Positions 6,165 through 60,601 of a stretch of DNA of 64,000 bases are shown here, one piece after another; the first letter of the stretch is position 1; every line of letters begins with the position of its first letter. Position numbers and translations under genes: made by a program. The notes below the pieces were generated by a model. That model saw only the letters and a program-made list of their open reading frames with translations. It ran no database searches and had not been told where the DNA came from. This stretch comes from Candidatus Doudnabacteria bacterium RIFCSPHIGHO2_01_FULL_46_14 (GTDB lineage Bacteria > Patescibacteriota > Doudnabacteria > UBA920 > 2-01-FULL-46-14): NCBI GenBank assembly GCA_001779925.1, contig MFEK01000007.1, positions 4,108-68,107 of the forward strand, written 5' to 3'.

Positions 6165-6221
6165 AGGCTTTCAAATAATAATCGAAATATCGGGATTCTT
6201 CAAGACCGTCACAAGAATATT

Positions 6222-6308
6222 TCCTCCCCTGGATGGGGGAGGAATTGAGGAAGAGGTGTAGGAAACGTCATCACCCCCACCTAACCTCCCCCCTCAAGGG
6301 GGAGGAAT
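6222..6308. repeat. GC-rich palindromic hairpin elements (family A), two hairpins
   Basis: ttcctcccctggatgggggagga ... cacccccacctaacctcccccctcaagggggagga. Confidence 0.8.
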
Positions 6309-15487: not shown

Positions 15488-16398
15488 CAATCCGGGAAGC
15501 CTTCGTTTGGACGGAAAAAAAAATAAATAAGGCAGATTCACCTCAGTTAGATGCTGAGGTTCTTTTGTCACATACCATAAAAAAATCCAAAGAATTCCTT
15601 TTTGCCAATCCGGACTTCAAACTTTCTAGCTTACAGTTTTCCATTTACAGGTCACTAATTCAGAAGCGCGATAGGCACTGGCCGGTCTCTTACCTCATCG
15701 GCCATAAAGAATTCTACGGCTTGGATTTCAAAGTCACACCCCATGTCTTAATTCCAAGACCGGAGACGGAATTGCTGGTAGAACTCGCGATTCAAAAGAT
15801 AAAAAACAAGCGATTAGCGATTAGAAATATCCTCGACATCGGCACTGGAAGTGGCTGCATTATCACAAGCATTGCTGTCATTGCGAGCCAGAGGCGAAGC
15901 AATCTCAAATTCTATGCGACGGATGTTTCAAATTCCGCTTTGAAAATTGCGAAGTCAAACGCACGTCGTCATAGCGTCGCAAAAAAAATAAAATTCCTCC
16001 ACAGCAATTTACTCTCAACCCTACCAGCTACAGCCTACAAGCTACCATCTCTGATTCTCGCCAACCTCCCCTACCTTACCCCTTCGCAATATAATTCGAA
16101 TCTTGATCTAAAACACGAACCACGCGCGGCATTGGTCGCAGGCCCAGATGGACTGAAATATTACCGGAAATTGTTTCGACAAATTCGTAACTCCCCCAAC
16201 CCCTCTTACCCTAAGAGGGGAACTCCTCCCCTTAGCCTAAGGGGAGGTAGGGAGGGGTTATTGACCCTCCTGCTGGAACATGACCCGTCGCAAACCTCCA
16301 AACTAAAGTTTCTCACCAAACAGTATTTTCCCCAGGCCAAACTGAAATTCCACCGCGATTTATCCGGTCTCAATCGAGTTCTAGAAATAAATCTCTAA
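15469..16398 (+). CDS. prmC: Release-factor glutamine methyltransferase PrmC/HemK, carrying an in-frame repeat insertion
   Basis: [13 protein letters not shown] motif, NLPY catalytic motif, LLLEHD tail. The family A palindromic element at 16189-16262 is translated in frame. Confidence 0.8.
16189..16262. repeat. GC-rich palindromic element (family A) inside prmC, in frame
   Basis: aactcccccaacccctcttaccctaagaggggaactcctccccttagcctaaggggaggtagggaggggtt. The first module is near-identical to 30089-30122 in dnaE; both encode [11 protein letters not shown]. Confidence 0.8.
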
Positions 16399-16964: not shown

Positions 16965-18059
16965 ATGGACGACAAAATCCGGCTAGGACTCACCTTTGAT
17001 GACGTACTTTTAGAGCCCAGAGAATCTGGGGTGGTGAGAGACGGTGTCCGGCTCGAAACAAAACTCACAAAGAAAATAAGATTACAAATTCCGATTCTTT
17101 CCGCAGCCATGGATACGGTATCTGAAACCGCCATGGCTGTTTCGTTGGGTAAATTGGGCGGCATGGCTGTCATCCACCGCAATTGTTCCATTGAGGCCCA
17201 GGTTAAAATGGTTCGAGACGCCAAAAAACATGACGTTCTTGTGGGCGCTGCTGTTGGCTCTTATGATCTCGAGCGGGCCAAGGCCCTCGACAAAGCTGGC
17301 GCGGATGTAATCGTGGTAGACACAGCTCACGCGCATAATTTGCAAACTATCGCAGGCGCAAAACAAATTAAAAAATCAATTCGAGCAGAGCTGATCGTCG
17401 GCAATATCGCCACCAGCGAGGCGGCCTCGGAACTAGTCAAATTTGCTGATGCCATCAAGGTCGGCATTGGCCCTGGCTCCATCTGCACCACACGCGTGGT
17501 GGCCGGCATTGGCGTTCCCCAACTCACCGCGATTTTGGATGTGGTAAAAATCGCGAACAAAAAAAATATTCCGGTGATTGCTGACGGTGGTATGAAATAT
17601 TCCGGAGACATTGTGAAGGCTCTTGCCGCTGGCGCTTCTACTGTAATGCTTGGTTCTATGCTAGCGGGTACAAAAGAGGCGCCGGGGCAAGTCGTTAAAA
17701 TTGACGGGAAAGAATTCAAATCCTACCGCGGCATGGGCTCTCTCGGTGTAATGCACGGCGGTAAATCTTCTGATAGATATTTTCAAAAGAACCCCCTCTT
17801 CATCTCCCCCTTATTAAGGGGGAGAAAGAGTGGGGGTTATGTGCCGGAAGGCGTGGAGGCCGTGACGCTTTACAAAGGAGAATTACAAGACGTAATTTTC
17901 CAGATTACCGGAGGCCTTGCAAGCGGCATGGGCTACATTGGCGCGCGCACCATTGCCTATATGCCAAAAAGGGCCAAATTCATACGGATAACAAACGCTG
18001 GTCTCAAAGAGTCTCACCCCCATTCTATAACAATAATTAAGCGTTCACCCAATTATTAA
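16965..18059 (+). CDS. guaB: IMP dehydrogenase/GMP reductase family enzyme (short form lacking the CBS subdomain), with a small in-frame repeat insertion
   Basis: [11 protein letters not shown] catalytic loop, ...SSDRYFQ...GYVPEGVE. A 15-aa insertion ([15 protein letters not shown]) is encoded by the palindromic element at 17792-17837. Confidence 0.75.
17792..17837. repeat. GC-rich palindromic hairpin element inside guaB, in frame
   Basis: accccctcttcatctcccccttattaagggggagaaagagtgggggt. Confidence 0.75.
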
Positions 18060-18065
18060 TGAAAA

Positions 18066-18150
18066 ATGTAAATATCAAAGATCAAAGTGACAGTGTAAAA
18101 TTTTAAAATTTTTAATTGTCATTTTCCATTTTGATTTTTCAATTTTAAAT
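18066..18150. repeat. AT-rich palindromic intergenic element, copy 1
   Basis: aatgtaaatatcaaa...tgacagtgtaaaattttaaaatttttaattgtcatttt; a second copy lies at 48400-48480. Confidence 0.7.
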
Positions 18151-18158
18151 TTACTCAA

Positions 18159-19270: not shown

Positions 19271-20908
19271 ATGATTTACGTTCTTGATTTCGGTTCTCAA
19301 TACTCCCATCTCATTACTCGCCGCATACGCGAGCTCGGCGTACTTGCCGAATTGGTCGCGCCCAATATTTCTCTGGATAAACTGAAATCCGCAGACGGCA
19401 TTATCCTCTCCGGCGGACCGCAAAATCTTTCGGACAGCGACGCGCTCCGCGTGGACAAAAAAATCTTTAACCTAGGCGTTCCTATCCTTGGCATCTGCTA
19501 TGGCATGCAGCTGACGGCTTACGAGCTGGGCGGCCGCGTGAAGGCGGGTAAAAAACGCGAATACGGGCCGACTGACATTAAAATAATAAAACCCGGCAAA
19601 CTGTTTGCTGGACTCAAGCCAAACCAGCGAACCTGGATGTCACACGGAGACCAGGTGGTCAGACTGCCGAAAGGATTCACAAAAATTGCCGGCTCAGTAA
19701 ACTGTCCGATCGCGGCTATGTCCAACCAGGCAAAAAACATCTACTGCCTGCAATTTCATCCTGAGGTCATCCATACCGAGAATGGGAAAAAAATCCTGGA
19801 AAATTTTATAAAAATCACGGGAGCGGCCAGAACCTGGTCAATGAAAGATTTTATTGCTAAAGAAATCGACAAAGTAAAAAAACAAATTGGCAGAGATAAA
19901 GCGATCTGCGCGCTGTCCGGCGGCGTGGATAGCGCAGTGGCTGCAAAAATAGTTTCCAAGGCTATCGGCAAAAATCTCATTTGTATTTACGTGGACACTG
20001 GCCTCATGCGCCTTGGCGAAACCGCGCAGATCAAAAAGTCATTCAAAAACCTCAGAGTCGTTAATGCCGAGAAAGAATTTCTTGCCAAGCTCAAAGGCGT
20101 CACTGACCCAGAAAAAAAGCGTAAAACTATTGGCGAGCTGTTTATTCGGATTTTTGAACGCGAGGCAAGGAAATTGTCACCCCCACCTAGCCTCCCCCCT
20201 CGAGCCTACCCCAAAAGCGAGTACGCTTTCGGGGGACCCCGGCAAGGGGGAGGAAAAAGAAACAAATTCCCCTCCCTTACTGTGCCCGCCGTAGCTTCAC
20301 GCGAAGGCTGGGAGGGGAGGGTGAAATTTCTTGTCCAGGGCACGCTGTATACTGACGCGGTAAGCTCTGGCGTATCAATTGGAAAAACGGCTGCAGTCAT
20401 CAAATCGCATCACAATGTCGGCGGTCTTCCTAAAAAACTGGGGTTCAAACTCATCGAGCCGCTCCGTGATTTGTACAAATACGAGGTCAGAAAACTCGGC
20501 CGCGAGCTCGGCCTTCCCAAATCGATTTATAACCGCCAGCCCTTCCCCGGTCCCGGGCTCGGCGTCCGAGTGATCGGCGAGGTCACAGAAGAAAAACTGG
20601 AACTCCTGAAAAAAGCAGACGCTATTGTCTGCGAGGTAATTGAGAAATCCAAAATCGCCGTTGATCAATATTTTGCCGTACTGCCAGATATTCGGTCAGT
20701 CGGGGTTCAGGGTGATTTTCGCACCTATGGCTGGCCAATCATTATCCGCGCGCTGAATACCGCTGACTACCTCACGGTCCACTGGGCAAAAATTCCCCAT
20801 CCGATTCTGGAAAAAATCTCCACCCGCATCACCAACGAGGTTCGCGGCATAAACCGTGTGGTTTACGATATCACCTCCAAACCCCCTGCCACGGTGGAGT
20901 GGGAATAA
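19271..20908 (+). CDS. guaA: GMP synthase (glutamine-hydrolysing) carrying a ~150-nt in-frame repeat insertion
   Basis: Class I GATase N-terminus (GICYGMQL), PP-loop SGGVDSAV, C-terminal KPPATVEWE. A 48-50 aa insertion lies between REARKLS and KFLVQGTLY relative to canonical GuaA. Confidence 0.9.
   Translation: MIYVLDFGSQYSHLITRRIRELGVLAELVAPNISLDKLKSADGIILSGGPQNLSDSDALRVDKKIFNLGVPILGICYGMQLTAYELGGRVKAGKKREYGPTDIKIIKPGKLFAGLKPNQRTWMSHGDQVVRLPKGFTKIAGSVNCPIAAMSNQAKNIYCLQFHPEVIHTENGKKILENFIKITGAARTWSMKDFIAKEIDKVKKQIGRDKAICALSGGVDSAVAAKIVSKAIGKNLICIYVDTGLMRLGETAQIKKSFKNLRVVNAEKEFLAKLKGVTDPEKKRKTIGELFIRIFEREARKLSPPPSLPPRAYPKSEYAFGGPRQGGGKRNKFPSLTVPAVASREGWEGRVKFLVQGTLYTDAVSSGVSIGKTAAVIKSHHNVGGLPKKLGFKLIEPLRDLYKYEVRKLGRELGLPKSIYNRQPFPGPGLGVRVIGEVTEEKLELLKKADAIVCEVIEKSKIAVDQYFAVLPDIRSVGVQGDFRTYGWPIIIRALNTADYLTVHWAKIPHPILEKISTRITNEVRGINRVVYDITSKPPATVEWE
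20176..20325. repeat. GC-rich composite palindromic element (family A) inserted in frame in guaA
   Basis: cacccccacctagcctcccccctcgagcctaccccaaaagcgagtacgctttcgggggaccccggcaagggggaggaa...ccgccgtagcttcacgcgaaggctgggaggggagggtgaaa; near-identical to the intergenic copy at 50675-50755. Confidence 0.85.
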
Positions 20909-22500: not shown

Positions 22501-22509
22501 AAACTTGGC

Positions 22510-22556
22510 TCCCTCGAAAATTGCGTTTTAGGCGCAGTTCGAGGGAGTTGTTTTTT
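22510..22556. terminator. Bidirectional terminator hairpin
   Basis: ctccctcgaaaattgcgttttaggcgcagttcgagggag followed by a T-run. Confidence 0.65.
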
Positions 22557-23293: not shown

Positions 23294-23440
23294 TTTACGA
23301 ATTACTAATGAGTACGAATATACGAATTCGTACATTCGTAATTGATTCGTTATTCGTAAAACAAATAATAGCAAATAAAAAACCCGCAGTCAAGGGGCGG
23401 ATTTGTAAATTCGTATTGATTAGTAATTCGCAGGGATCAG
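23294..23440. repeat. TACGAAT-heptamer palindromic element (family B), empty copy plus partial extra arm
   Basis: ttacgaattactaatgagtacgaatatacgaattcgtacattcgtaattgattcgttattcgtaaa; arms are reverse complements of each other. Confidence 0.8.
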
Positions 23441-26799: not shown

Positions 26800-26886
26800 A
26801 GCTACGAACTACGAATTTTTTACGAAAATACGAAAAAGAACTGATTTGTTCGTAATTTCGTAGCCTTATTTCGTAATTTCGTAGCC
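26800..26886. repeat. TACGAAT-heptamer palindromic element (family B), empty copy directly upstream of dnaE
   Basis: gctacgaactacgaattttttacgaaaatacgaaaaa...gttcgtaatttcgtagcc (right arm duplicated). Confidence 0.8.
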
Positions 26887-29800: not shown

Positions 29801-30508
29801 GCGGACGAAAACCAGTATTTCACTATCGGCGGCATCATCACCCGCATCCAAAACATTCTCACCAAAAAAGGCGATCAGATGTGTTTTGCGGATATTGAGG
29901 ACGAAAGCGGCAAGCTGGAGCTGGTTGTGTTTCCGAATGTTTATAGTGAATCCAAATCCTTGCTCGCGGTAGACCAAATCCTTCTCACGAGAGGCAAGAT
30001 TTCCGATAAAGATGGGGAAATAAAACTGCTGGTGGATTCTATGAAATTGATTGGAGACGCGGATTTGGAAAAATGGGTTAACACTCGTAACTCCCCTAAC
30101 CCCTCTTACCCTAAGAGGGGTATTGCCCCCCACCTAACCTCCCCCACTGCCTACTCCGCCGAAGTGGCTACGGAGGCCGGACAGGGGGGAGGAAAAAATG
30201 CAGGGGATTTCCCTCCCCAGAACAGGACTTACTCTTCTATCTTCCCTCCCCCCGGTGAGGAGGGACTGAGGGAGGGGGGGCGCGTTCTCAAAATCAAAAT
30301 CCCCAAAACCGCAGACCCGCAGGTGTTTAACAAATTAAAAATCGTGTTCAACAAATTCCCAGGCGAGGTGGCCGTGTCCCTCGTCATCCCCGACCGCGAA
30401 GGAACGGAACGGGAAGTGAAAACTGACTTTAAAGTAGACAGCACCGACCTGTTCAAAACCGAGTTGCGGGAACTCTTACGCCAGAGCATCCAGCACGTCA
30501 AGTCTTGA
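26888..30508 (+). CDS. dnaE: DNA polymerase III alpha subunit with a ~190-nt in-frame repeat insertion near the C-terminus
   Basis: PHP domain (HLHVHSHYSLLDG), polymerase core, OB-fold region. The C-terminal region contains translated family A palindromic elements at 30089-30281. Confidence 0.9.
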   Translation: MQFTHLHVHSHYSLLDGLSKIPDLISAVQKKGMEAVALTDHGALYGALEFYKAARRSGVKPIIGLEAYVAPGSMLEKKTPADADYFHMILLARNNEGYQNLLKLVTASHLEGYYYKPRIDKKLLSQYSSGLIGLSGCLRGEIARAVAAGNFDSAKRIALEYQNIFEPDGFYLELQRNLEEPQQQTVNDGLIKISRETSIPIVATNDAHYLNPEDNAAQDILVCIGTGTTVEQTDRLDMRKMKLHLASPEEMAELFSDIPEAIANTQKIADMVDLTLSLEKRHFPSFPVPEGQNAEDYLEKLSLRGLKEKKPDRELPAEILTRLNYELDVIKKKGYAGYFLVVADFVNWSRARGIISTTRGSAAGSLVAYALGITTLNPIEYKLPFERFLNPYRPTPPDIDMDFADNRRDEVLNYVSDKYGRDRVAQIVTFGTMMARAAVRDVGRALGVAYSKCDRIAKMIPLGKQGFHMTIEKALTLAPELKEAFDRDQETRNLIELARKVEGCARHASVHAAGVVIAPTSLSSYTPLQLDTDNKNIITQYDMHSVEEAGLVKMDFLGIRNLSILGNAVEVVRTSRGIDIDLGKIPLDDPKTYKLLSLGRTMGVFQLGGSGMTKYLVDLKPTNIFDIMAMISLYRPGPMESIPEFIQRKHNAALITYIDPRLKEILDMSYGVITYQEDVLLTAITVAGYTWEEADKLRKAMGKKIPKEMMAQKEKFIQGAITGGLSSEKAVKLWALIEPFAAYGFGKAHAASYAMVAYQTAYMKANFPVEFMAAVMTAEAGDNEKVAQAVNECASLEIEVLPPDVNESLANFTAINDRQIRFGLNAIKNLGSDVIETIIAERAKGGEFASLGDFVRRMKTRNFNKKSWEALAKSGSLDRYGERNQLLLNTEIILEYAKAEQKQLASGQSMLLGGATAAAQELLLRNAPQASDQEKLSWEKELLGLYVSSHPLRSHRALLEKYCKPINVLSIADENQYFTIGGIITRIQNILTKKGDQMCFADIEDESGKLELVVFPNVYSESKSLLAVDQILLTRGKISDKDGEIKLLVDSMKLIGDADLEKWVNTRNSPNPSYPKRGIAPHLTSPTAYSAEVATEAGQGGGKNAGDFPPQNRTYSSIFPPPGEEGLREGGRVLKIKIPKTADPQVFNKLKIVFNKFPGEVAVSLVIPDREGTEREVKTDFKVDSTDLFKTELRELLRQSIQHVKS
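30089..30281. repeat. GC-rich composite palindromic elements (family A) inside dnaE, in frame
   Basis: aactcccctaacccctcttaccctaagagggg...ccccccacctaacctccccc...ggacaggggggaggaaaaa...cttccctccccccggtgaggagggactgagggaggggggg. Confidence 0.85.
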
Positions 30509-33911: not shown

Positions 33912-34862
33912 ATGAAGTTGCCAAAGCTCATCATCATAACCGGACCCACCGCCTCCGGAAAGACTGCCTTGTCTTTAAAATTGGCCAAAAAAATTCACGG
34001 CGAAATAATCTCAGCTGACAGCCGGCAAATCTATCGCGGCATGGACATCGGGACGGCAAAACCGTCCCGAGATCAAAGATCAAAAATCAAAGATCAAAAT
34101 TTTTATTCCAAAGGGATTCGCCACCACCTCATTGATATTCGTAATCCTGATCAGCCCTATACTCTGGCTGAGTTCAAACGCGATGCCATAAAAGCGATAA
34201 ATACCATTGCGAAACGCGGCCGCGTCCCCTTTCTGGTCGGCGGCACAGCTCTCTACATCTGGGCTATTCTGGAAAATCCGGAAATACCCGAGGTTAAACC
34301 GAATAGCAAATTTAGAAATCTGCTTGAACGACAGTTACAGCGACACGGCGTTCAATACCTCTACAAAAAACTAATTCTAAAAGACCCCGAAGCCGCCTGC
34401 ATCATTGATCCAAAAAATCCCCGCAGAATCATCCGCGCTCTGGAAATAATGCACGCTACAGGCAAACCGTTTTCGGATTCTCGAAAAAAAGGAGCATCGC
34501 TCTTTGATTGCATGGTTTTGGGAATGAAACTGCCGCCCGCAAAATTGAAAAAAATAATCAAGCTTCGCGCAGCCCAGCAGTTACGCTCCAATCTCATTTC
34601 CGAAGTCCGAAGATTAACTAAAAAATATGGCATACAAAGGCAAGCCTTTGATGCTATAGGCTACCGCGAAATAATTTCTCATTTGAATGGGCAAATTTCC
34701 AAAGCCGAAGCTCTAAAACAAATCCAAAACAACACCTGGCATTTTGCTGGCCGCCAGATGACCTGGTTTAAAAAACTACCGATTGAGTGGATCAAAAATT
34801 ACAAGCAGGCTGAAACGAAAATCAAAACGCATTTATTCCTCCCCCTTGAAGGGGGAGGTTAG
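33912..34862 (+). CDS. miaA: tRNA dimethylallyltransferase
   Basis: P-loop GPTASGKT, DSRQIYRGMDIGTAKP. The last 9 codons and stop lie in a palindromic element. Confidence 0.85.
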   Translation: MKLPKLIIITGPTASGKTALSLKLAKKIHGEIISADSRQIYRGMDIGTAKPSRDQRSKIKDQNFYSKGIRHHLIDIRNPDQPYTLAEFKRDAIKAINTIAKRGRVPFLVGGTALYIWAILENPEIPEVKPNSKFRNLLERQLQRHGVQYLYKKLILKDPEAACIIDPKNPRRIIRALEIMHATGKPFSDSRKKGASLFDCMVLGMKLPPAKLKKIIKLRAAQQLRSNLISEVRRLTKKYGIQRQAFDAIGYREIISHLNGQISKAEALKQIQNNTWHFAGRQMTWFKKLPIEWIKNYKQAETKIKTHLFLPLEGGG

Positions 34863-34924
34863 GTGGGGATGGAGAATTTAAGTACTTCACCCCTCCCTTA
34901 ATCCCTCCCCCTCAAGGGGAGGGA
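34837..34924. repeat. GC-rich palindromic hairpin elements (family A), three hairpins overlapping the miaA 3' end
   Basis: ttcctcccccttgaagggggagg...cacccctcccttaatccctccccctcaaggggaggg. Confidence 0.8.
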
Positions 34925-34932
34925 AAATTTCT

Positions 34933-48399: not shown

Positions 48400-48480
48400 T
48401 CAAAATGTAAATATCAAAATGTAAAATGACAGTGTTTAAATTTTAAAATTTTTAATTGTCATTTCGATTTTTACACTTTG
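48400..48480. repeat. AT-rich palindromic intergenic element, copy 2 (upstream of recG)
   Basis: aaaatgtaaatatcaaaatgtaaaatgacagtgtttaaattttaaaatttttaattgtcatttcga. Confidence 0.7.
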
Positions 48481-50612
48481 CATTTTACATTATCATGTTA
48501 TCAATAAATGATTCTGTCTCCAAACTCCACCTTGTTAAACCTGAGCACCTTGAGGCCTTATCCAAGCTTGGCATTAAAACCGTAAAAGATTTACTGTATC
48601 ATTTTCCCCGGGACTGGCAGGATCTTTCGGAAATTAAAAAGATTTCCGAGATACGGCCAGGGGAAAAGATCAGCATCAAGGCTCGAGTTAAACATCTGAG
48701 CATTCCTGGCTTTCCTTTTCGCAGGGTCAAGATCACGGAAGCCCTGCTCGAGGATGAAACCGGAAATGTGGTCGCGATCTGGTTTAACCAGCCGTACATA
48801 AAAAATTCGCTTCGCTTGGGAAATGAATATTATTTCAGCGGCAAGGGTCAGATTTACGCCACAAAAAAACAGCAAACCCTCCAGCTGACGCATCCCACAT
48901 TTGAGATGGTACGCGAGGAAACAATTCATGTTGCCGGTCTTATCCCTGATTACCCGCTCACAGAAGGTATAACCCAAAAACAAGTCCGCTATTGGCTTAA
49001 ACAAGCTCTGGAATCTTTGCCGCAGCTCATAGAGATCCTGCCGGAAAAGTTGAAGAAAAAAATGAAGCTTATCGGGCACACGGAGGCAATAAAAAATCTA
49101 CATTTCCCTGATGATGCAGCCCATCTCAAAAAAGCAAAAAACCGCCTAGCTTTTGAGGAGTTATTTCTGTTTCAGCTGGCTTTCCAAAGCTATAAAAAAA
49201 CGTTAAAGTGCCTGCCGGCACCGGCAATCCAATTCGACAAAAATCTGGTAAGCCAATTCGTCGAGAAACTTTCGTTTCAGCTCACTGCCTCCCAGCGCCT
49301 CTCTGCCTGGGAAATCCTCAGCGACATGGCAAAGCCCCACCCTATGAACCGGCTCCTGGAAGGAGAGGTCGGCTCCGGGAAAACCGTAGTCGCCGGACTG
49401 GCTATGCTGGAAACGGCTACGGCCGGCTATCAATCGATATTGCTGGCACCGACGGAGATTTTGGCCTGGCAGCATTACCAAACCCTGGAAAAGCTTTTTG
49501 CGCATACTGGCATTAAGATTGCTTTGCAAACACGAAGTCATAAAATTGGGGAGATTAGGGAAATAAGGGAAGGCACGATCAAAATAATTGCAGGAACTCA
49601 TGCCCTTCTCCAAGAGCGGATCAGTTTCCATAAAATCGGTCTTTTAGTAATCGATGAACAGCACCGGTTTGGCATCAAACAGCGGCAAGCATTGCTTCGC
49701 GGACAAGCCGAGTTAGTTCCTCACCTATTAAGTATGACTGCGACCCCGATCCCGCGCACGCTCGCTCTGGCATTTTACGGAGACCTGGATATATCAAAGC
49801 TGAAGGAACTGCCCTCGGGAAGAAAAAAAGTCATCACGAAATTGGCATCGCCTGAGAATCGCGTGCTCGCCTACGAAGTTGTCAGAAAGGAATTGCAAAG
49901 AGGCCGACAGGCTTATGTGATCGTGCCGCTTGTCGGAGAAACAAGCGATTTATCACCCCTCCCTAACCCTCCTCCTCAAGGGGAGGGAAATACAAATGAA
50001 ACAAAATCAGTAATTACAGAGGTCGAAAAATTAAAAAAAATTTTCCCAGAATTCCAGATCGGCCTTCTTCATGGCAAAATGCCCGGCGAGGAAAAGAAAA
50101 AAATCATGCAAGTATTTTCCGCCAAAGGCGGATCCGCAACCGGCGGAAAAGCTCATAAAATAGACATTCTCGTTTCCACGACCGTGGTCGAGGTCGGCGT
50201 AGATGTTCCAAACGCCACGATTATGATCATCGAGAACGCAGAACGGTTCGGCTTGTCGCAGCTGCACCAACTACGCGGTCGGGTTGGAAGATCACACCTG
50301 CAGTCTTTGTGCGTGCTGTTCGCCGGCCTCTATTCCGAAACGACACGGCAGCGCCTGGAAGCAGTCGTGAATAGCAATGACGGATTTGAGCTTGCGGAAA
50401 TTGATTTGAAGATGCGCGGCGCCGGCGAAATACTCGGCACCAAGCAGTCCGGTTTTATTCCCTTCAAAATCGCCTCGCTCAGCGACGAAAAAACAATCGA
50501 ATCAGCAAAAAAAGAAGCCCTGGCTCTTTTGGAGCAGGACCCTGAACTTGAGAATTATCCAATGCTGATGAAAAAGGTTGCGGAGATTTCAAAAGAAGCC
50601 CATCTGGAATGA
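48456..50612 (+). CDS. recG: ATP-dependent DNA helicase RecG with small in-frame repeat insertion
   Basis: Wedge/OB N-domain, helicase motifs GSGKT, DEQHRFG, TATPIPR, QLRGRVGR. A 13-aa insertion SPLPNPPPQGEGN is encoded by the palindromic element at 49954-49988. Confidence 0.9.
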   Translation: MSFRFLHFAFYIIMLSINDSVSKLHLVKPEHLEALSKLGIKTVKDLLYHFPRDWQDLSEIKKISEIRPGEKISIKARVKHLSIPGFPFRRVKITEALLEDETGNVVAIWFNQPYIKNSLRLGNEYYFSGKGQIYATKKQQTLQLTHPTFEMVREETIHVAGLIPDYPLTEGITQKQVRYWLKQALESLPQLIEILPEKLKKKMKLIGHTEAIKNLHFPDDAAHLKKAKNRLAFEELFLFQLAFQSYKKTLKCLPAPAIQFDKNLVSQFVEKLSFQLTASQRLSAWEILSDMAKPHPMNRLLEGEVGSGKTVVAGLAMLETATAGYQSILLAPTEILAWQHYQTLEKLFAHTGIKIALQTRSHKIGEIREIREGTIKIIAGTHALLQERISFHKIGLLVIDEQHRFGIKQRQALLRGQAELVPHLLSMTATPIPRTLALAFYGDLDISKLKELPSGRKKVITKLASPENRVLAYEVVRKELQRGRQAYVIVPLVGETSDLSPLPNPPPQGEGNTNETKSVITEVEKLKKIFPEFQIGLLHGKMPGEEKKKIMQVFSAKGGSATGGKAHKIDILVSTTVVEVGVDVPNATIMIIENAERFGLSQLHQLRGRVGRSHLQSLCVLFAGLYSETTRQRLEAVVNSNDGFELAEIDLKMRGAGEILGTKQSGFIPFKIASLSDEKTIESAKKEALALLEQDPELENYPMLMKKVAEISKEAHLE
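49954..49988. repeat. GC-rich palindromic hairpin (family A) inside recG, in frame
   Basis: cacccctccctaaccctcctcctcaaggggaggg. Confidence 0.8.
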
Positions 50613-50616
50613 GTCT

Positions 50617-50765
50617 TTTCCCCTCCCTTGATGGGAGGGGTAAGGGAAGGGTGAAATTTAATTATGCCACCCCCCACCTATAACCTCCCCCATCGAGCCT
50701 ACCCCAAAACCGAGTACGCTTTTCGGAGACCCCGGCAAGGGGGAGGAACTAAATTCAGGGGGATA
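50617..50765. repeat. GC-rich composite palindromic element cluster (family A), intergenic
   Basis: cccctcccttgatgggaggggtaagggaagggtgaaa...caccccccacctataacctcccccatcgagcctaccccaaaaccgagtacgcttttcggagaccccggcaagggggaggaa; 80-nt core about 90% identical to the guaA insertion. Confidence 0.85.
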
Positions 50766-51766
50766 ATTCCAAAGAATACAAATTACCCGCGCCGTCAATA
50801 TAAAAGAGGATGTCCTTGAATGGATGCAAAAACGCGTCGCGGACAGGACCGCCGGGAAAACTGCCCCAGTCTTTGACATCGCCGGTTCTGGTATTTTCTT
50901 CTTTCAGCAAACCATTGGTCGCGAATATCACACCGCCGCTATCCCTGCTCCATATCGCAAAATCGGTACTGGCGATGCTAAAATCCTTTCTCTGCTTGGT
51001 GGCAAAATCATAGAACCAAAATACCAAAACCCCTGCCTTGTTTTCGCTGACCAAAAGCTTGCTACCGTCCGGAGAAAACCGAGTATTTTCATACCTGCCG
51101 TTATCCGCAATATTGCTGAATGTTGACGCGGCCAGATCAACATGAATCAAAGGCGAGGTTGTGGCGTTTGCAAACATCACAAGCTCCAGCTTGCGCGGAT
51201 GCGCGACAAGTCGATAGTCGGACCGGAACAGGTCGCCGATTTTGGCAAAATTACTGCTGTTGATATCAGAAATTTTCAGTTCGTGATTATCGCCTATTAC
51301 CCAATCATAGGCAATTCTGGCATCGCCGGCGAGGATAACCGGCTCGCGAATATTGTCCGGATACTGCGAAAGCTGTTTATCACTGGCGCGAACATAAGTG
51401 TAGCGAAGGTGTCCGTCAATATTTTGCGCAACGATGAAATCACTGCCTTTTTCCTGCCATTGTACGTCCGAGGGATTTTTTATGGTTTCCGGAAGGATAA
51501 ACTCTTCGCGTGCTCCAGATTCAAGATTTACGCTAAGGATTTTACCATCCAGAGTCAGGTACCATACCCGCTCTCCGTTGAATGAAGGAACAGCCGAGAC
51601 AACCTCTTGGGCTAGTATTTTTTGGGCAGGGTTCTCGTCAGAAACAGTATTCTCAGGCGCAGGAACCGGTACGGTATCGCGATTGCGGCGAATATAAAGA
51701 AAACCGAGACTCAATATCAGCAGTATAGTGAGAATGACCGTGGTGATTATAAAAATTTTTCTCATT
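50755..51766 (-). CDS. Hypothetical membrane-anchored protein, possible beta-propeller repeats (start MRKIFII)
   Basis: N-terminal TM then repetitive beta-rich sequence. Flanked on both sides by family A elements; the ORF-track N-terminal extension into the repeat was trimmed. Confidence 0.4.
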
Positions 51767-51783
51767 GTACATCTCCTGTCTTT

Positions 51784-51866
51784 TCCCCTCCCTTGATGGG
51801 AGGGGTTGGGGGAGGGTGATAAATTAGACAGTTCACCCCACCTTACCTCCCCCCTCAAAGAGGGAA
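51784..51866. repeat. GC-rich palindromic element cluster (family A), intergenic
   Basis: cccctcccttgatgggaggggttgggggagggtgataaa...caccccaccttacctcccccctcaaagaggg. Confidence 0.8.
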
Positions 51867-51914
51867 GAACTAAAACAATATTGGGAATTATATACAAAGC
51901 TACCCTAAAGTAAA

Positions 51915-52148
51915 TTACTCTGTTGCTGGTGGGGCATACTTAAAAATATAAGTCCGCTTTACCGCCGCCGCACAAGCCTTACGGCCTTCCTCATTAAAAT
52001 CAGAACTAGAGCAATACCTAATACTGTTTATCACTTCCAAATTATGCTTTTGAATCCCGATATACAGATTAAATCCAAACAACAAAATAGACAGCCCAAA
52101 GAATACCAGTAGTGTAAACCTGAACCAATTTTCTTTAATAAATCTCAT
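51915..52148 (-). CDS. Small membrane protein (77 aa, MRFIKENWFRF...)
   Basis: The upstream part of the 135-aa ORF-track ORF is occupied by a tRNA gene, so the start was moved to the internal Met with a TM helix. Confidence 0.3.
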   Translation of the reverse strand: MRFIKENWFRFTLLVFFGLSILLFGFNLYIGIQKHNLEVINSIRYCSSSDFNEEGRKACAAAVKRTYIFKYAPPATE

Positions 52149-52233
52149 AACTCTTGACAATCCTGTGGATACTTGATAATATATTCTTTCGTTCTTTGTT
52201 ATACTAACTTTAGCAGTTTTTGAAATAATGGCC

Positions 52234-52318
52234 AGCCTCGCACGGGATTCGAACCCGTATGTCCGCCACGGACGATAGTTTTCTAAACTATTGCGTATAC
52301 CAGTTCCGCCAGCGAGGC
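52234..52318 (-). tRNA. Class II tRNA (Leu-like body) with unusual anticodon loop UUAGAAA (reads as AGA), T discriminator, no encoded CCA
   Basis: GCCTCGCTGGCGGAACTGGTATACGCAATAGTTTAGAAAACTATCGTCCGTGGCGGACATACGGGTTCGAATCCCGTGCGAGGCT. Perfect 7-bp acceptor, D-arm like tRNA-Leu, long variable hairpin, canonical T-arm. Confidence 0.5.
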
Positions 52319-52405
52319 ACAAAGCCGCTCAAAGTGCAGATTAGGATTTAACGATAAAGTTCCAACGAGTCCTTTCTTCCTAATCTGCGCCCTGGGCGGC
52401 TTTTA

Positions 52406-53158
52406 TTATGCGTCAGTAGTATCAGGTGGTCGAGGAGATTTTTTGGATAAATAGTCTTCAGCTACGGCTTTCAAGTCTTTTAATGCTTGACGATATTTGG
52501 CACTCAATTCGTCATCAAAATTTGTATCGCTTTGAAAATCAGGCGGCACAAGCAAGGTAAATTTTCCATCTACGATTTTAATCGGAAATAAACCAGATGG
52601 CGTATGCGGCTGATTATGAATAACATTCGGAGTTTTGGTTGAACTTTCTGTCCGTGCCTTTTTTTCTGCCCTCGGCTGTCGTATTCTGGAAACTACCGAT
52701 CCCTCCTCTTTTAATCCTGCATATTCCAACAACCGATTAAATACGGGAATTGCTGTTCTGACTAATCGCCCCGAAAGGCCATATTGCGCTATGAACTCAT
52801 TGTTAAGATCGTCGGGCGATAAATCCTGCGGTGCTTCAACTACGCTAAATAGTTTGTGATATGCGGCTCTAACGATTTTTTCAAACTCTTTTTTGCGAAC
52901 ATCGCCTTTCAATCGCACTTTTTGAAAAAGCTCCGTCGGTTTGCCTTGTTCATCTATTAGTCCCAAAAAGCGCAAAGCATTCACGGCAAGGAGAGCGTCA
53001 GTATCCCCGAATCCATACCCTGTAAAAATGGACTGATTAATTTCAGCGTAATTACGGGTAGAAATTAGCTCAATCGTTTTATCCAGCTTCGCTACGCTGA
53101 AATACGGCGGCTTCATTTGCCTGGGATTTTCAGTTTTGGTGTCTTCTTGGTCGGTCAT
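52406..53158 (-). CDS. Hypothetical protein
   Basis: 250 aa, no recognisable motif; adjacent to the IS element. Confidence 0.35.
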   Translation of the reverse strand: MTDQEDTKTENPRQMKPPYFSVAKLDKTIELISTRNYAEINQSIFTGYGFGDTDALLAVNALRFLGLIDEQGKPTELFQKVRLKGDVRKKEFEKIVRAAYHKLFSVVEAPQDLSPDDLNNEFIAQYGLSGRLVRTAIPVFNRLLEYAGLKEEGSVVSRIRQPRAEKKARTESSTKTPNVIHNQPHTPSGLFPIKIVDGKFTLLVPPDFQSDTNFDDELSAKYRQALKDLKAVAEDYLSKKSPRPPDTTDA

Positions 53159-53409
53159 ATAGATAGAGGGTAATATAATGCGAGGATAAAGTCAAGGGGG
53201 CTGGAGTAGGCTCGTATTACTTTTTTCACTAGATTCAGCATATATCCTAAACTTGAACTTGTCAAATGGTTAAGTCCAAGTGTCATACTTGAATTAGGTA
53301 GAATGTGATAAATTAGTCATTTCTCTGACCGCATAATGGCTTATTTTAGCCAATTATTTATCCACAATTCGGACTTGACAACCCCACAATACTGATATAT
53401 ATTGCATAT

Positions 53410-54333
53410 ATGAACAACATTAAGCCCAAGACACTAATAGACTTCTTAGCCAACTTCAAAGATGAGACTACCTGCCAGAGATACTTTGAGGAGGTTCGCT
53501 TCCGAAACGGCCAGTATTGCGCCCATTGTGGCCATACCACTATCTACCGCTTCAAGGACGGCAAACGCTTTCGCTGTGCCGATTGCCGCAGGGATTTCAC
53601 TATCAAAACCAATACAATCTTTGGTGAAAGCAAAATTCCCCTGCAAAAATGGTTTATAGCCATTTATCTGCTCTCTACATCTAAAAAGGGCATTTCCTCG
53701 GTTCAGCTTGCTAAACAAGTTGGCACTACCCAAAAAACGGCCTGGTTCATGGATCACCGCATAAGGGAGGCCATGAAACAAAACAAAGGCCAGCTATTCG
53801 GGACTGTGGAAGTGGACGAAACCTATATCGGCGGTAAAGAGAAAAATAAGCACTTCAATAAAAGAGCTAAAGGCACGCAAGGCCGAAGCACAGAAACTAA
53901 AACGCCAGTCATGGGTTTAATTCAGCGCGGCGGCAAAGTCAAAGCGTCTGTGTTGGAAAATGTCAGCATGAAAGTTATTGAGCAGAACATCGTTGACCAT
54001 GTAAAGCCAGGCTCAAAAATTTACACTGACGATTTCCTATCATACTCACGAATTAAAAAGCTCTACCCGCACGAAGCCGTAAAGCACGGCAAAGGTGAGT
54101 ATGTCCGGGCAGGCGGTATTCACTCAAACAGCGTGGAAAGTTTCTGGGCGATTTTCAAAAGGGGTTATCATGGCACATACCATAAAATGAGCCGGAAGCA
54201 CTTACAGAGATATGTTGATGAGTTCGTATTTCGCTTCAACGCAAAGGCAGTAGATTTTGGCGAAACCTTTAGCGATATGGTTATGAAAGTATCGGCCAGC
54301 GAAACATTGCGCTACAAGGCTCTAGTAAAGTAA
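53410..54333 (+). mobile_element. IS1595-family transposase gene (N-terminal zinc-ribbon plus DDE domain)
   Basis: FKDETTCQRYFEEVRFRNGQYCAHCGHTTIYRF...RFRCADCRRDFTIKTNTIFGESKIPLQKWFIAIYLLSTSKKGISSVQLAKQVGTTQKTAWFMDHRIREAM, the hallmark IS1595/ISXO2 N-terminus. Terminal inverted repeats not resolved. Confidence 0.8.
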
Positions 54334-54676
54334 AATCTATGTATGAGCAGAAAATCAAAAATTCACGAGCCAATCCCTGTTAGTTTTGACAAAATCCTAA
54401 CTGGTATTGCGGATGAGAAAAAACCTCGTAAGCATAAGGAGCGAAAGCGCAAAGTGCGAGGGTATAAGAAAAAAGCATGAGAAATTGGATTAAAGAAACC
54501 TGGTTCAAAATTATAATCGCCACTTTTCTATTAGTCGTGTGCTATTTTCTTATCTACATTACTTTCAAAGGATTTCCTGTTTGCAATACTGATCCAAAAA
54601 CATCTCTAATTTTAAGACACGGTTGCAAAACTTTTTAAAAGTTTAGGGTAGCTTTGTATATAATTCCCACAATATT

Positions 54677-55987
54677 CTATTCTGAATTAATTGGCCCGCT
54701 ATCTTGTTCGCATTTGCGTAGGCTAATGTAAACATGATCAGCATTTTTGTCAGCACAAGAAACCTCGTCGGCATTAACAGTCTCACATACTGCACGGTTC
54801 AAGGCAATGCCTAAAACCTCACTGCAATACTGAGCGGCTTGCAAAATCTGCCCGCCCATCACGGCTTCATTGCCCACACCCTCACTGCCGGCAAAATCTG
54901 CAGCTAATGCCCCGGTTTTGCCAAGTGCTCCGCCATAATGGCAGGAATTAACTGGATAGGCACACTGACCGCAGATTTCCGCACCCCTGGTATAGTTGCA
55001 GACCTCGCCGCCTTGCTCAAAGGTCGAAACCCCTCCCGCATCAGGCGCTTGCGTACGAATGCAGGAAACAAGCCGGTCAAGGTCCGGATCGGTGCGACGC
55101 GGATGCGGCGCATTGTTTTGCTGGGCCAAAATCTCCGGCGCACTGCACATGGCAGTCAAACCGCTTTCCACGATTCCTGCGACACTGCCCGTCACTCCCG
55201 ACAGGCTCCCGCCGACGCTATTCAGCGAGTCGCAGACCTGCTTGGGAACCCCTATATATTCCGTATAATCAAAAGCTTCCAGAAGCGATAGCAGCCCTTG
55301 CGGATTGCAGACTATATAGAGAGGCCAGACAATAAAAATAACCAGGAGCAAGACTACCAATAAAATCGCACCAAGATCTATGACAGCCAGCTGAACCTTC
55401 TGCGCTATCGAGAATTCGCCAAACAGTTTTGATCCGAGCTTCGAAGCCAAAAAATGCGCATTCAAATATAAAAAAGGAATTATCCATCCGAATAAAGTAA
55501 GAATGCTGACCCAAAATGCTGTGAAAGCAGTGTACAATAAATACCAGCTGGCAGAGCTTTTGGCGATATTAGTCAAGCTTTCACCCTGCATTGCGCCTGA
55601 TATCGCTCCTCCCAGGGCTGCCGATTTTCCGCCGCTCATTTTTCCAACCTTGCCTTTGTATTTAGTTTTATTGAAAGCTTTCCTTGCAAGCCCTTTGCCT
55701 TGAGCAAATTTTGCAGCTTGACCGCCAGCAAAACTTGACGCGGCTTTGCGCCCGGCGCCATGATGGCCTGTTCCAGCTTCCTTAAAACCATGAGCCCCTT
55801 CACGAAATTCGTCGGCCAGGTCGTGCTGGCCTGCCATATAAGCGCCAAGTTGGCCGGCCCTCATGGCGTATTTACCAAGCTTCAAAAGCCGTTTTTTGTT
55901 TTTGCTGCTTGTAAGTTTGTCTAGATTATGCAGCTCTTCTTCGGTCAAGGTTGCCATAATACCTTCTCTTAGTTGCAAATTGATCAA
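54677..55987 (-). CDS. Membrane protein with Gly-rich N-terminal region, two TM helices and Cys-rich C-terminal domain; last gene of the VirB4 operon
   Basis: 436 aa, TM helices at ~150-180 and ~205-235, 12 cysteines in the C-terminal 150 aa. Confidence 0.4.
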   Translation of the reverse strand: MINLQLREGIMATLTEEELHNLDKLTSSKNKKRLLKLGKYAMRAGQLGAYMAGQHDLADEFREGAHGFKEAGTGHHGAGRKAASSFAGGQAAKFAQGKGLARKAFNKTKYKGKVGKMSGGKSAALGGAISGAMQGESLTNIAKSSASWYLLYTAFTAFWVSILTLFGWIIPFLYLNAHFLASKLGSKLFGEFSIAQKVQLAVIDLGAILLVVLLLVIFIVWPLYIVCNPQGLLSLLEAFDYTEYIGVPKQVCDSLNSVGGSLSGVTGSVAGIVESGLTAMCSAPEILAQQNNAPHPRRTDPDLDRLVSCIRTQAPDAGGVSTFEQGGEVCNYTRGAEICGQCAYPVNSCHYGGALGKTGALAADFAGSEGVGNEAVMGGQILQAAQYCSEVLGIALNRAVCETVNADEVSCADKNADHVYISLRKCEQDSGPINSE

Positions 55988-56948
55988 AAGTCTTGTCTAC
56001 CAGTCTGGCCAGTGTTTTATTTCGCGTGATCATTTTCCCCGCTTTGAAAAGCGGAGCGTAAATTTCCCTCCCTATCCCGGCTGTCCTTGCCACAGCAGCG
56101 CTTCTTGTCAGGATCTTTGCTCCAAGAACCGAACCCTTGACTGCTTTGGTGCCGATTGCACCAACGCCGGTCATGTCTAGAATGAAAAAACTGCCTCCTT
56201 CTAAAGCGTGCAAAGCGCGCTTCCAACCGGACAATTTTTGTCCATCTAACGTTTTTCCCTTTACTGCTTCAACCAGCATTTTCGCAGGACCAATGACAGG
56301 AATGAAATCAATGCCTGTGGAAGCGATTTTTTTTAATCTCCCGCCGTCGCCTGCCTCCTCTGCTTGTTTAATTTCTTTTACGGTGCTATCAAAGCTCTCT
56401 TTCGGGATAGCTAATTTGAATTTTTCTACTACTCCCAGAGCAGTCTTTGCCAGATTTTTATAATCAGAGCCGTCTTCGACTTTATCGAGCGCCTGAGATA
56501 TCTGTGGCGCAAGAGTGCGCAGTTTTTCCAATATCTCCAGCGATTTTTCGGAAAAAGTTTTTTTCTCGCGCAGGCTTCCAAAAAAAGCCAGCGCTTCTTG
56601 GGCGAATCTTTCTGAGGCTGTATCCAGGTCTTTTGATTCAAAAACTTCTGATAGAACCCGGCCCAGCTCCTGCTCGGCGGTTTTATCAACAACTGGCTCA
56701 GCATCAGATTCGGGGTTATCTTCCACATTTTCCCTTAAACCGATTGATGCTCTCACTTCTTGAATCTTTACTTCGTCATCAGCTTCTCTCTCGTAGACTG
56801 TGGCGTCCCACGCCGCCTCTCCTTCTTCATCATCCAAAGCTTCTTCCATAGTTGTGATATGTGGTGTTGCCCGCAATTCCCGCAAACCCTCGCGGAATTG
56901 ATGGGTTTTATCGAGATCGGCCTGGTTTTCCTGAAGTCTTTCCGTCAT
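55926..56948 (-). CDS. Acidic hypothetical protein, translationally coupled to VirB4
   Basis: 340 aa; start overlaps the VirB4 stop (ATGA). Confidence 0.4.
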   Translation of the reverse strand: MTERLQENQADLDKTHQFREGLRELRATPHITTMEEALDDEEGEAAWDATVYEREADDEVKIQEVRASIGLRENVEDNPESDAEPVVDKTAEQELGRVLSEVFESKDLDTASERFAQEALAFFGSLREKKTFSEKSLEILEKLRTLAPQISQALDKVEDGSDYKNLAKTALGVVEKFKLAIPKESFDSTVKEIKQAEEAGDGGRLKKIASTGIDFIPVIGPAKMLVEAVKGKTLDGQKLSGWKRALHALEGGSFFILDMTGVGAIGTKAVKGSVLGAKILTRSAAVARTAGIGREIYAPLFKAGKMITRNKTLARLVDKTFDQFATKRRYYGNLDRRRAA

Positions 56949-58762: not shown

Positions 58763-58828
58763 TTTACGAATTACGAATATTTACGAATGTACGAATTCGT
58801 AAATTCGTACGATTCGTTATTCGTAAAG
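58763..58828. repeat. TACGAAT-heptamer palindromic element (family B), empty copy between virB4 and the upstream gene
   Basis: ttacgaattacgaatatttacgaatgtacgaattcgtaaattcgtacgattcgttattcgtaaa, a perfect central palindrome gtacgaattcgtac. Confidence 0.8.
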
Positions 58829-58830
58829 CT

Positions 58831-59508
58831 TTATTCATTTATCTCTATCCCCTTAATATTATCAGCGTGCAGGATGGAGGCAGAATCCAGGTTATAGGCC
58901 TGGTAAAGGAGCTCAACTAGTTCCTCCGTGGTCAGCAAAAGCGAACGCAGTCCCACACCGCCGAGCTCTGATATAACGTGATTGGTGCGCTCATCCAGCT
59001 TGGTCTTCGCGCGATGGAAATCTCCCTGAGAGGTTGCAATCTGGGAAAGCGGATTGAAAAAGGTTCTAATCCTTGACCCCCAGGTTTGTTTTACCGGCTG
59101 GGCCGAATACGGCACCACGACATAGAAATTTTTCTGCATGATATTGGCAAACTCCACAAGCTTGCCGACGTATTCGATGTACTCGGTCATTTGGATCCGC
59201 AGCAGCTCATTGGTTTGTCCAGCGGCCAGGCCTTTGAGCTTCTCCAGATAACCGCCGATGTCGAGAATGCGCGAGTGGATCAAAATCTGCAAAGGAAAAT
59301 CTATGGAGTTGAGCATGCCCTGATAAGCGCTAACTAGCGCATTTTGCTCGTCTTCCGATTTTAGAGCGAAATTCGTCGAAGACACCGCGATAACCGCGCG
59401 CAGTGAGCCGTCTTTTAGTACCAATGTGTCTTCTTTTATTTCCGCCACATTGATATATTTTTGGGTGGAATACGAGGGGCCTTTAGTTTTTGCTTTTTGC
59501 ATTTCCAT
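58831..59508 (-). CDS. Hypothetical protein of the T4SS-like operon
   Basis: 225 aa, no TM, no motif recognised. Confidence 0.35.
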   Translation of the reverse strand: MEMQKAKTKGPSYSTQKYINVAEIKEDTLVLKDGSLRAVIAVSSTNFALKSEDEQNALVSAYQGMLNSIDFPLQILIHSRILDIGGYLEKLKGLAAGQTNELLRIQMTEYIEYVGKLVEFANIMQKNFYVVVPYSAQPVKQTWGSRIRTFFNPLSQIATSQGDFHRAKTKLDERTNHVISELGGVGLRSLLLTTEELVELLYQAYNLDSASILHADNIKGIEINE

Positions 59509-59511
59509 AAT

Positions 59512-60524: not shown

Positions 60525-60601
60525 TTTATTATAGCATAAATTGAAAAAATAACAAAAAACCTCCTTTTCGTATTTTCGTAAGTATTCGTAGTTCGTAGCC
60601 T

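Follow-up and report, generated by a model that had tools for sequence, protein, structure and literature searches.

The guaA gene in a 64 kb stretch of a Candidatus Doudnabacteria bacterium genome (the whole of this stretch is called the window below) carries a GC-rich palindromic repeat inside its coding sequence. Most probably, and we put the probability at about 0.75, this insert is a repeat resembling the repetitive extragenic palindromes (REPs) and the Rickettsia palindromic elements (RPEs), which is tolerated in frame and, as we infer, translated as a disordered loop of the enzyme. An earlier reading made from the DNA letters alone (the sequence-only reading) had described a translated palindromic insertion in this gene; its observation is confirmed and its interpretation supported by the analysis presented here. 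What it overlooked is that the guaA insert is one of many in-frame inserts in the window and in related genomes, and that intragenic palindromic repeats have already been described.

The gene occupies positions 19271-20908 on the + strand and is an intact open reading frame (ORF) for a glutamine-hydrolysing GMP synthase of 545 amino acids (aa), as identified by phmmer, Pfam, NCBIfam and AlphaFold2. Its translation agrees exactly with the one given in the sequence-only reading. Pfam recognises GATase, NAD_synthase-like and GMP_synt_C domains, and all the columns that are invariant among the 121 GuaA sequences aligned here, catalytic residues included, are retained. With the NCBIfam equivalog NF000848 the score is 689.6 bits (cut-off 400) and the protein is matched as two stretches (2-303 and 350-545), and phmmer alignments to solved GMP synthases split in the same way (2-303 / 351-545), where the 7sbc chain is continuous from residue 332 to 334. 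The NCBI record of this protein (OGE79101.1, A2751_05670) is labelled 'hypothetical protein' despite passing the GMP synthase equivalog model, and the insert may be the cause of this failure to name it.

Comparison with homologues places 48 extra codons (S303-R350; 20177-20320, 144 nt, + strand), by empty-site comparison and alignment gaps, where a linker of two codons is otherwise found, a net gain of 46 aa (138 nt). We aligned the window's GuaA with its best 120 homologues, every one of which comes from Patescibacteria-type metagenome bins. The linker at the insertion site is 3 residues long in 90 of the 121 sequences, in agreement with the earlier statement that canonical GMP synthases run from block to block without an insert; it measures 4-49 aa in about 30, the window's 49 aa being the longest. 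The nearest homologue (P0001, encoded at locus L082) is 85% identical to the window's GuaA outside the gap and has an empty site. From FIRIFE to LVQGTLY the window's GuaA has 70 aa, and the same span is 24 aa long in L082 and in L002 and L003, the useful relatives among the matches listed in a peptide-pattern scan of genome contigs. In these three loci the empty site reads ...AAACTT GGAAAC GTGAAATGG... (KL-GN-VKW), and the filled site of the window reads ...AAATTG, followed by the element TCACCC ... GGGAGGGGAGG and then by GTGAAATTT.... The phmmer break at 303/351, the alignment of homologues and the empty sites all place the insertion between conserved GuaA blocks. The limits first proposed for it (20176-20325, 150 nt) were essentially right and can be refined to a palindrome TCACCC...GGGTGA at 20177-20324 (148 nt). 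The insert has a GC content of 63%, against 49% for the remainder of guaA.

Repeats can mislead assemblers, and together with the label 'hypothetical protein' this might suggest that a repeat was mis-assembled into guaA or that the gene is a pseudogene. We give this explanation the least credence of all, as an identical protein (in the NCBI record, of Candidatus Doudnabacteria bacterium) is found on 3-4 contigs across the NCBI, JGI and ENA archives and comparable inserts occur at the same two sites in dozens of related GuaAs from other samples, while the open frame, the invariant residues and the close similarity to P0001 outside the insert argue against decay of the gene.

Architecture and fold of the guaA insert

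The insert consists of two GC-rich hairpin units in inverted orientation, an R-unit and an L-unit, with an A-rich spacer between them (all on the + strand). The R-unit (20177-20253) begins with the head TCACCCCCACCTAG, and its stem is formed by the arms CCTCCCCC (20191-20198) and GGGGGAGG (20246-20253), which enclose a 47-nt loop containing a nested GC-rich hairpin. The spacer AAAAAGAAACAAA (20254-20266) separates it from the L-unit (20267-20324), whose arms TCCCCTCCC (20268-20276) and GGGAGGGGA (20310-20318) enclose a loop in which a CCGCCGTAGC...GGCTGG module is nested; the tail GGGTGA follows, the last 4 nt of which overlap codons V351-K352. Both units were delimited by hairpin scan and fold, and the spacer by the same layout in L085 and L003. 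Units of this family, which we call type A, are about 36 nt long and have a C-rich 5' arm, a G-rich 3' arm and a conserved flank (TCACCCCCACCTAA / TTAGGGGAGGGTGA); they form dimers of both the L-then-R and the R-then-L order, and terminal inverted repeats TCACCCCCACC / GGGGAGGGTGA close the R-then-L dimer.

The palindromic nature of the insert, also noted in the sequence-only reading, is borne out by its predicted fold. For the RNA of 20170-20330 the predicted structure is a three-way junction with an energy of -70.3 kcal/mol (z = -3.7), a stability reached by 0 of 200 shuffles, and with DNA parameters the same region gives z = -3.4. The stems are still perfect helices of 8-9 bp, which may mean either a recent insertion or selection on the structure. 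On both sides of the element the same AAA codon and the same hexamer, GAAATT, can be read directly, and the empty site already has the heptamer GTGAAAT, which is the usual right end of an L-unit (GGGTGAAAT); this match may be due to chance or may hint at an insertion guided by microhomology.

Both halves of the insert recur in intergenic DNA of the window at 89-92% identity, which upholds the description of the insert as a composite of a repeated element. Positions 20180-20255 match the intergenic stretch 50671-50748 at 70/76 (92%), nested module included, and positions 20267-20322 match 1640-1695 at 49/55 (89%) with two 1-nt gaps. The earlier claim that the 41-nt tail of the insert also occurs intergenically holds: the gapped match at 1640-1695 is such a copy, and an ungapped search allowing at most 3 mismatches found no second one because the copy differs by two 1-nt indels.

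Two further features of type A units were seen in the course of this comparison. Several of their loops contain nested GC-rich modules, such as CCGCC-GTAGCTTCA-GCGG-AGGCTGG and CCCGCCTCG...CGAGGCTGG (at 20199-20245, 20277-20309, 1652-1683, 30146-30183 and 61173-61218, and at the same site in the guaA of L083 and L084), and these modules look like a third family of small palindromes that enters the ATCAA/TTGA loop, giving elements within elements. In L-units the G-rich half, of which GGGAGGGGTAAGGGGAGGG is an example, can be read directly as four G-runs that fit a G-quadruplex motif, with a C-rich strand opposite, at 20310-20322, 1681-1707 and 50632-50652 and in the guaA inserts of L085 and L003; an alternation of L-units between hairpin and quadruplex is possible.

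Reading frame and predicted protein loop

The guaA element is free of stop codons in exactly one of its six frames, and this is the frame used by guaA. A second kind of element, type B (described below), is likewise open in only one of six frames, again the one used. The two dimer arrangements differ in location and in open frames: R-then-L dimers, found in genes, have 1-3 open frames, whereas L-then-R dimers, found between genes in the window, have 0-1, and the intergenic dimer at 50613-50748 has at least one stop in each of the six. This pattern is what is expected if only insertions compatible with read-through survive in essential genes.

To place the insert in the enzyme we used an AlphaFold2 model of GuaA, which has a confident core (mean predicted local distance difference test score, pLDDT, of 82.4) and target-normalised TM values of 0.78-0.82 against solved GMP synthases. 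Residues 303-350 are without secondary structure in this model, with pLDDT below 50 at 312-348, and they are flanked by the helix 280-302 and the strand 351-355. The insertion thereby maps to this helix-strand connection of the ATP-pyrophosphatase domain. Related GuaAs carry inserts at a second position, the F258-L261 connection (site 1, the window's own being site 2), which in the model sits between helix 250-257 and strand 261-265, so that both hot spots are helix-to-strand connections. As a rule, alpha/beta nucleotide-binding folds have connections of this type on the face of the sheet away from the active site, and both insert sites would by this reasoning lie there.

If the insert is translated, predicted tryptic peptides encoded by it are LSPPPSLPPR, SEYAFGGPR, FPSLTVPAVASR and EGWEGR(VK). 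It might also be missing from the mature protein, either removed as an intron or intein or skipped by ribosomes hopping from AAA 20171-20173 to AAA 20324-20326, a process with a precedent in gene 60 of phage T4. The strong hairpin and the repeated AAA and GAAATT motifs on either side would suit such a removal, but nearly everything else speaks against it. Rfam at gathering thresholds finds only 7 tRNAs in the whole window, and in E-value mode (to E = 10) it returns chance-level microRNA-type matches and no intron for the guaA insert and for 50560-51900. Pfam, run on whole proteins, and NCBIfam, run on the 48-aa and 26-aa insert peptides (from guaA and prmC) with E up to 1, find no family in the inserts. 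The junction residues of an intein (Asn plus Cys, Ser or Thr) are missing at R350-V351, with 144 nt the insert falls below the size of a self-splicing intron or an intein, and the guaA element has no in-frame stop that would call for hopping. A hop from AAA to AAA would, moreover, take five residues from a linker that has one fixed length in 90 of the 121 homologues, and a sequence open in the used frame only, with the other five closed, is what selection for read-through would give. We therefore consider removal of the insert very improbable; its intact sole open frame, the conserved residues kept around it and the lack of intron or intein signatures indicate that it is probably translated.

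Copies in the window and in related genomes

The repeat family is present at at least 13 sites in the window. A scan for hairpins with a C-rich and a G-rich arm finds 19, of which 11 lie inside ORFs; as the coding share of the window is about 84%, intergenic DNA is enriched in them only three- to four-fold. Between genes, the dimer at 50613-50748, 3' of recG, has the L-then-R order, with an R-unit that is twin to that of guaA, the nested loop module included. The twin of the guaA L-unit is a single unit at 1640-1712, upstream of a UPF0047 gene. Further intergenic L-then-R dimers are found at 6220-6308 and at 51778-51862 (lying upstream of a gene with its end at 50755), and one at 34824-34926 stands between the convergent genes miaA and gatB, with its first hairpin overlapping the 3' end of miaA.

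Within genes, in-frame copies occur without disruption of the ORF in guaA and in four other, unrelated conserved genes (prmC, guaB, dnaE and recG), all read on the + strand. The prmC gene has an 81-nt type B double hairpin at 16184-16264, coding for a 26-aa peptide placed after the end of the HemK alignment. In guaB, encoding IMP dehydrogenase (IMPDH), a hairpin unit at 17791-17837 adds 12 aa relative to L085, and near the C-terminus of dnaE a cluster of type B and type A units (30085-30290) adds about 50 aa relative to the same locus. The R-unit in recG (PLPNPPPQGEGNTNE, 49948-49990) corresponds to a 15-aa gap in the alignment with Thermotoga maritima RecG (1gm5). By Pfam, the recG unit falls between the helicase lobes and the dnaE cluster beyond the OB fold. 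In all, the 64 kb contain at least five essential or housekeeping genes with such copies, and inserts of this kind can derail annotation, inflate the apparent novelty of proteins of the candidate phyla radiation (CPR) and disturb both alignments and phylogenies. Together, filled and empty sites provide a natural map of insertion-tolerant loops in conserved enzymes.

The type B element, TTCGTAACTCCCC...GGGAGGGGTTATTGA, is 81 nt long and has the ends TAACTCCCC / GGGAGGGGTTA. Its copy in prmC is identical at 76/81 positions (94%) to the insert at hot spot 1 of another GuaA (P0012, locus L206), a protein 77% identical to the window's own, and the two copies have sharp boundaries and unrelated flanks. 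The first half of the element is also present in the window's dnaE, and the three copies share one reading frame. The identity between prmC and the guaA of another genome is, at the level of sequence, evidence that discrete elements have been copied between sites. An alternative would have the hairpins arise locally, by slippage or inverted duplication at runs of C and G, and resemble each other by convergence. The arms are of low complexity, the search for a transposase and for target-site duplications gave nothing (see below) and the unit occurs in very different organisms, all of which would fit a local origin. We nevertheless regard it as highly unlikely, since genic and intergenic copies agree at 89-92% over stretches of 76 nt and 55 nt that take in complex, non-repetitive loop modules, since the type B element keeps its sharp boundaries and its 94% identity across different genes and genomes, and since sequence shuffles give about 0.1 hairpin elements per locus against the 4-9 counted per real locus.

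In related lineages GuaA inserts measure 4-49 aa at the window's site and 13-41 aa at F258-L261. The layout of R-unit, spacer and L-unit is repeated in the site 2 insert of L085 and in the site 1 insert of L003, and long-loop variants of the insert are found in the guaA of L083 and L084. At the window's site the GuaA P0024 has an insert that apparently derives, judging from its peptide (VIARSEATKQS type), from an unrelated hairpin family; the use of the same site by an unrelated family speaks for hot spots that are permissive loops and not specific targets. A different hairpin is also seen in the window's prmC at 15877-15906 (aa 137-146; GTCATTGCGAGCCAGAGGCGAAGCAATCTC), where T. maritima HemK is 5 residues shorter. 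Peptides similar to these ten residues (VIARSEATKQS..., ...PRNDK) occur in the site 2 insert of P0024 and in an insert in the PrmC of L085, and the same loops thus seem to have been settled by more than one family of hairpins. The insert in IMPDH is common to the window and L206, where it is orthologous and has diverged by substitutions and a changed loop with no frameshift, and it is absent from L085, which implies that some of the insertions are old and have been kept in frame. In L003, L084, L085 and L206 all 25 of 25 C-arm/G-arm hairpins lie deep in long ORFs, and the same scan detected none in L002; all five loci were picked around guaA and are a biased sample for counts of hairpin location.

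This repeated use of the same two GuaA loops could also be taken to mean that the insert, though translated, has been co-opted. It would then serve either as a functional protein loop (an interaction surface or a tether) or as a structure of the mRNA or DNA, in which a three-way junction slows ribosomes or stabilises the message, or a hairpin/G-quadruplex switch operates. The intact stems, the orthologous IMPDH insert that keeps its arms while its loop has diverged, the very stable fold, the quadruplex motif of typical L-units and the position of units just after stop codons in other organisms, as in REP-type RNA elements, are all compatible with such a role. Against it, the nearest relatives do without the insert and its peptide is predicted to be disordered, and inserts at the same site vary in length and sequence and include one from an unrelated family, as expected of a permissive site and not of a required function. 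Taking the protein and nucleic-acid variants together, we think co-option unlikely, though less so than removal of the insert or a local origin of the hairpins.

The view that the guaA insert is a tolerated copy of a repeat presupposes some means of copying, and here several observations count against it. Target-site duplications were not found when the copies in guaA, prmC, dnaE and L206 were compared with empty sites, and no transposase linked to the units was found in the window or in the other unit-bearing loci scanned. The one transposase of the window lies in an IS1595 element, and the 28-bp inverted repeats of that element show no relation to the units. Pfam detects no gene of the HUH-Y1 type (Y1_Tnp, as in the REP-associated tyrosine transposases, RAYTs) among the roughly 55 ORFs of the window that were scanned, and a phmmer search with Escherichia coli RayT through the ORFs of about 155 other unit-bearing loci yields two Y1 transposases (L131 and L157). 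Neither has a unit beside it, and one has its own, different REP on its flanks. Given the lack of target-site duplications and of a linked transposase, the copying could be due to recombination or template switching instead of transposition. Selection on the structure, one of the two readings of the intact stems, would also count against the view of a tolerated copy. The mobility of the repeats as such is something we infer from the copies.

On the preferred interpretation, in which the repeat is tolerated in frame, the hairpin repeats would behave like non-autonomous mobile DNA of the REP, REPIN (REP doublet forming a hairpin) or RPE type, and one copy would have landed, or been copied, at the point of the ATP-pyrophosphatase domain where helix 280-302 leads into strand 351-355. 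It would persist there because its length keeps the frame, because its only stop-free frame is the one that is read and because the site is a permissive loop. The ribosome would most likely read through it, producing a disordered loop of about 48 residues rich in Pro, Gly, Ser and Arg, and the enzyme would keep its activity; to judge from the sequence, the insert is presumably neutral for GuaA.

Known repeat systems, wider distribution and other repeats

In-frame palindromic repeats are the hallmark of the RPEs (Ogata et al. 2000, 2002; summarised in PMC10969869), and some RPE-bearing proteins have been shown to be expressed (PMC10969869). Like the RPEs, the Doudnabacteria elements are palindromic repeats of about 100-150 nt that are found both between genes and in frame in unrelated housekeeping genes with intact ORFs, that encode a family-typical peptide from one frame and whose insertion sites are compatible with the protein fold. 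They differ in their host (Patescibacteria/Doudnabacteria rather than Alphaproteobacteria) and in being GC-rich C-arm/G-arm hairpins, dimers of units of about 36 nt with nested modules. We saw no sequence relation when the insert peptides were compared with Pfam and NCBIfam, a comparison at the level of peptides and not a direct alignment with RPE DNA.

Di Nocera et al. (2013, PMC3733652) described intragenic REPs of the GTAG and CGTC types from Opitutus terrae, R. conorii, Thauera and further species; in their survey a dimer codes for 20-30 aa and a cluster for 43-82 aa, and the genes concerned frequently serve replication or repair. The present elements are likewise short stem-loop repeats, often in inverted dimers and also within genes, and here too replication and repair genes (dnaE and recG) are decorated. 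Intragenic REPs are members of families that are mostly intergenic, whereas here the genic share is much higher, with 11 of the 19 hairpins of the window and all 25 in the four related loci. By direct reading, the type A and B units have no GTAG or CGTC tag at the foot of the stem; the unit ends are TCACCCCCACCTAA... and ...GGGGGAGGAA, with GTAG occurring only within a nested loop module, and no RAYT was seen among the window ORFs scanned. REPINs and bacterial interspersed mosaic elements (BIMEs) are REP doublets that form hairpins and are mobilised by RAYT transposases; by definition they are extragenic, and a RAYT gene lies nearby (PMC3116915). A REP or REPIN is built of imperfect palindromes of 20-40 nt, a size that includes the unit of about 36 nt found here, and both systems combine inverted short palindromes and a spacer into a larger hairpin, occur as singlets, doublets and clusters and show no target-site duplication. 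Here, in contrast, roughly half of the units or more lie in genes, and a RAYT was found neither among the window ORFs scanned nor beside the units in about 155 other loci.

[quoted passage not shown] They share with the present elements their small size, non-autonomous nature, terminal inverted repeats and ability to extend or interrupt ORFs in frame, and differ in that we find neither a target-site duplication nor, within the window, a parent insertion sequence with matching ends. The mobile GC clusters and the double-hairpin elements of fungal mitochondria are, likewise, double hairpins that are GC-rich in a less GC-rich genome, intergenic and occasionally in frame in genes. They are organellar, unlike the Doudnabacteria elements, and are not known to be related to them in sequence.

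Since the GTAG or CGTC tag, the extragenic position and the RAYT association that define REPs and REPINs and the duplications and parent element that define MITEs were not found in the DNA scanned, and no sequence relation to RPEs was seen, we class the Doudnabacteria elements as protein-coding palindromic repeats in a new phylum. The phenomenon itself is already known, and what is new is the host, a member of the candidate phyla, and the unusually high genic density. Genic palindromic repeats were long held to be peculiar to Rickettsia and were later found in a few REP-rich species; here they occur at high density in a small CPR genome.

The type A unit has a far wider distribution than the insert. 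We scanned metagenome contigs (matches listed only) and viral contigs, which added 34 stretches, for the R-unit core CCCCACCTNRCCTCCCCC and found it, among the matches listed, in contigs of 28-75% GC. The partner arm GGGGGAGG follows within a few bases in 152 of the 188 core matches listed, and the flanks are conserved among them ((A/G)C before the core, RA after it) while the loops vary, ATCAA being the commonest. Complete R-then-L or L-then-R dimers with an L-unit of the window's type are present in L086, L098, L107, L117, L139, L144 and L201. In these other organisms the units are mostly intergenic, often just past stop codons. In-frame units were also seen in a radical SAM protein (L180) and an arginase (L163), in each of which a Pfam domain is split at the unit, and in the inter-domain linker of an AtuA protein (L201). 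Plasmids of Deinococcus aetherius (NZ_AP026562.1, L242) and Pannonibacter phragmitetus (NZ_CP013069.1, L243) carry single units, and a BLAST search of plasmids gave four unannotated intergenic matches and no name for the element. The type B core had no matches in the viral contigs. Neither Rfam nor the record annotations nor the literature searched supplied a name for the unit family, and we found nothing specific in the literature on such elements in CPR/Patescibacteria or on the arm sequences.

These matches raise the tentative and on balance doubtful possibility that the units form a cosmopolitan, unnamed family of C-arm/G-arm double hairpins, of the form (A/G)CCCCCACCTNRCCTCCCCC-loop-GGGGGAGGRA, that is weakly excluded from genes in Doudnabacteria-like genomes. 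If this were true, new Pro/Gly/Arg-rich loops in the proteins of a reduced genome would come recurrently, and to a major extent, from these hairpins, and the conservation of the units across phyla would imply a shared mobilising or binding factor or a conserved function of the nucleic acid, such as a hairpin/G-quadruplex switch. Should the spread of the unit across phyla reflect common descent, it would represent an unrecognised and very widespread small element.

Several other repeats and islands are present in the window. A complete IS1595-family element (51882-54669) is bounded by 28-bp perfect terminal inverted repeats (51882-51909 and 54642-54669) and contains a DDE_Tnp_IS1595 transposase gene (53410-54333, + strand), a DUF5343 gene (52406-53158, - strand) and a tRNA gene (52234-52318, - strand). 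The region beside it (54677-58759) encodes a VirB4/TraG-like ATPase (56945-58759), a protein with a PT-TG pre-toxin domain (55926-56948) and an unknown ORF of 436 aa, and may be a mobile or secretion-related island.

Between purA and rplY, which are convergent, the hairpin CTCCCTCGAAAATTGCGTTTTAGGCGCAGTTCGAGGGAG (22509-22547) resembles a common stem of the terminator type more than one of the repeat units. Another repeat family, the second of the window, is AT-rich, has the motifs TACGAAT / ATTCGTA and is found at 23294-23434, 26801-26850, 58763-58810, 59487-59627, 60046-60080, 60485-60599 and 61395-61443, including copies near rplY and upstream of dnaE, and brackets two PD-(D/E)XK_3 (PF13366) genes (60081-60524 and 61430-61825). 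An AT-rich palindrome of about 90 nt (AAAATGTAAATATCAAAG...) occurs at 18057-18151, after guaB, and at 48402-48492, upstream of recG, the two copies being 74-78% alike.

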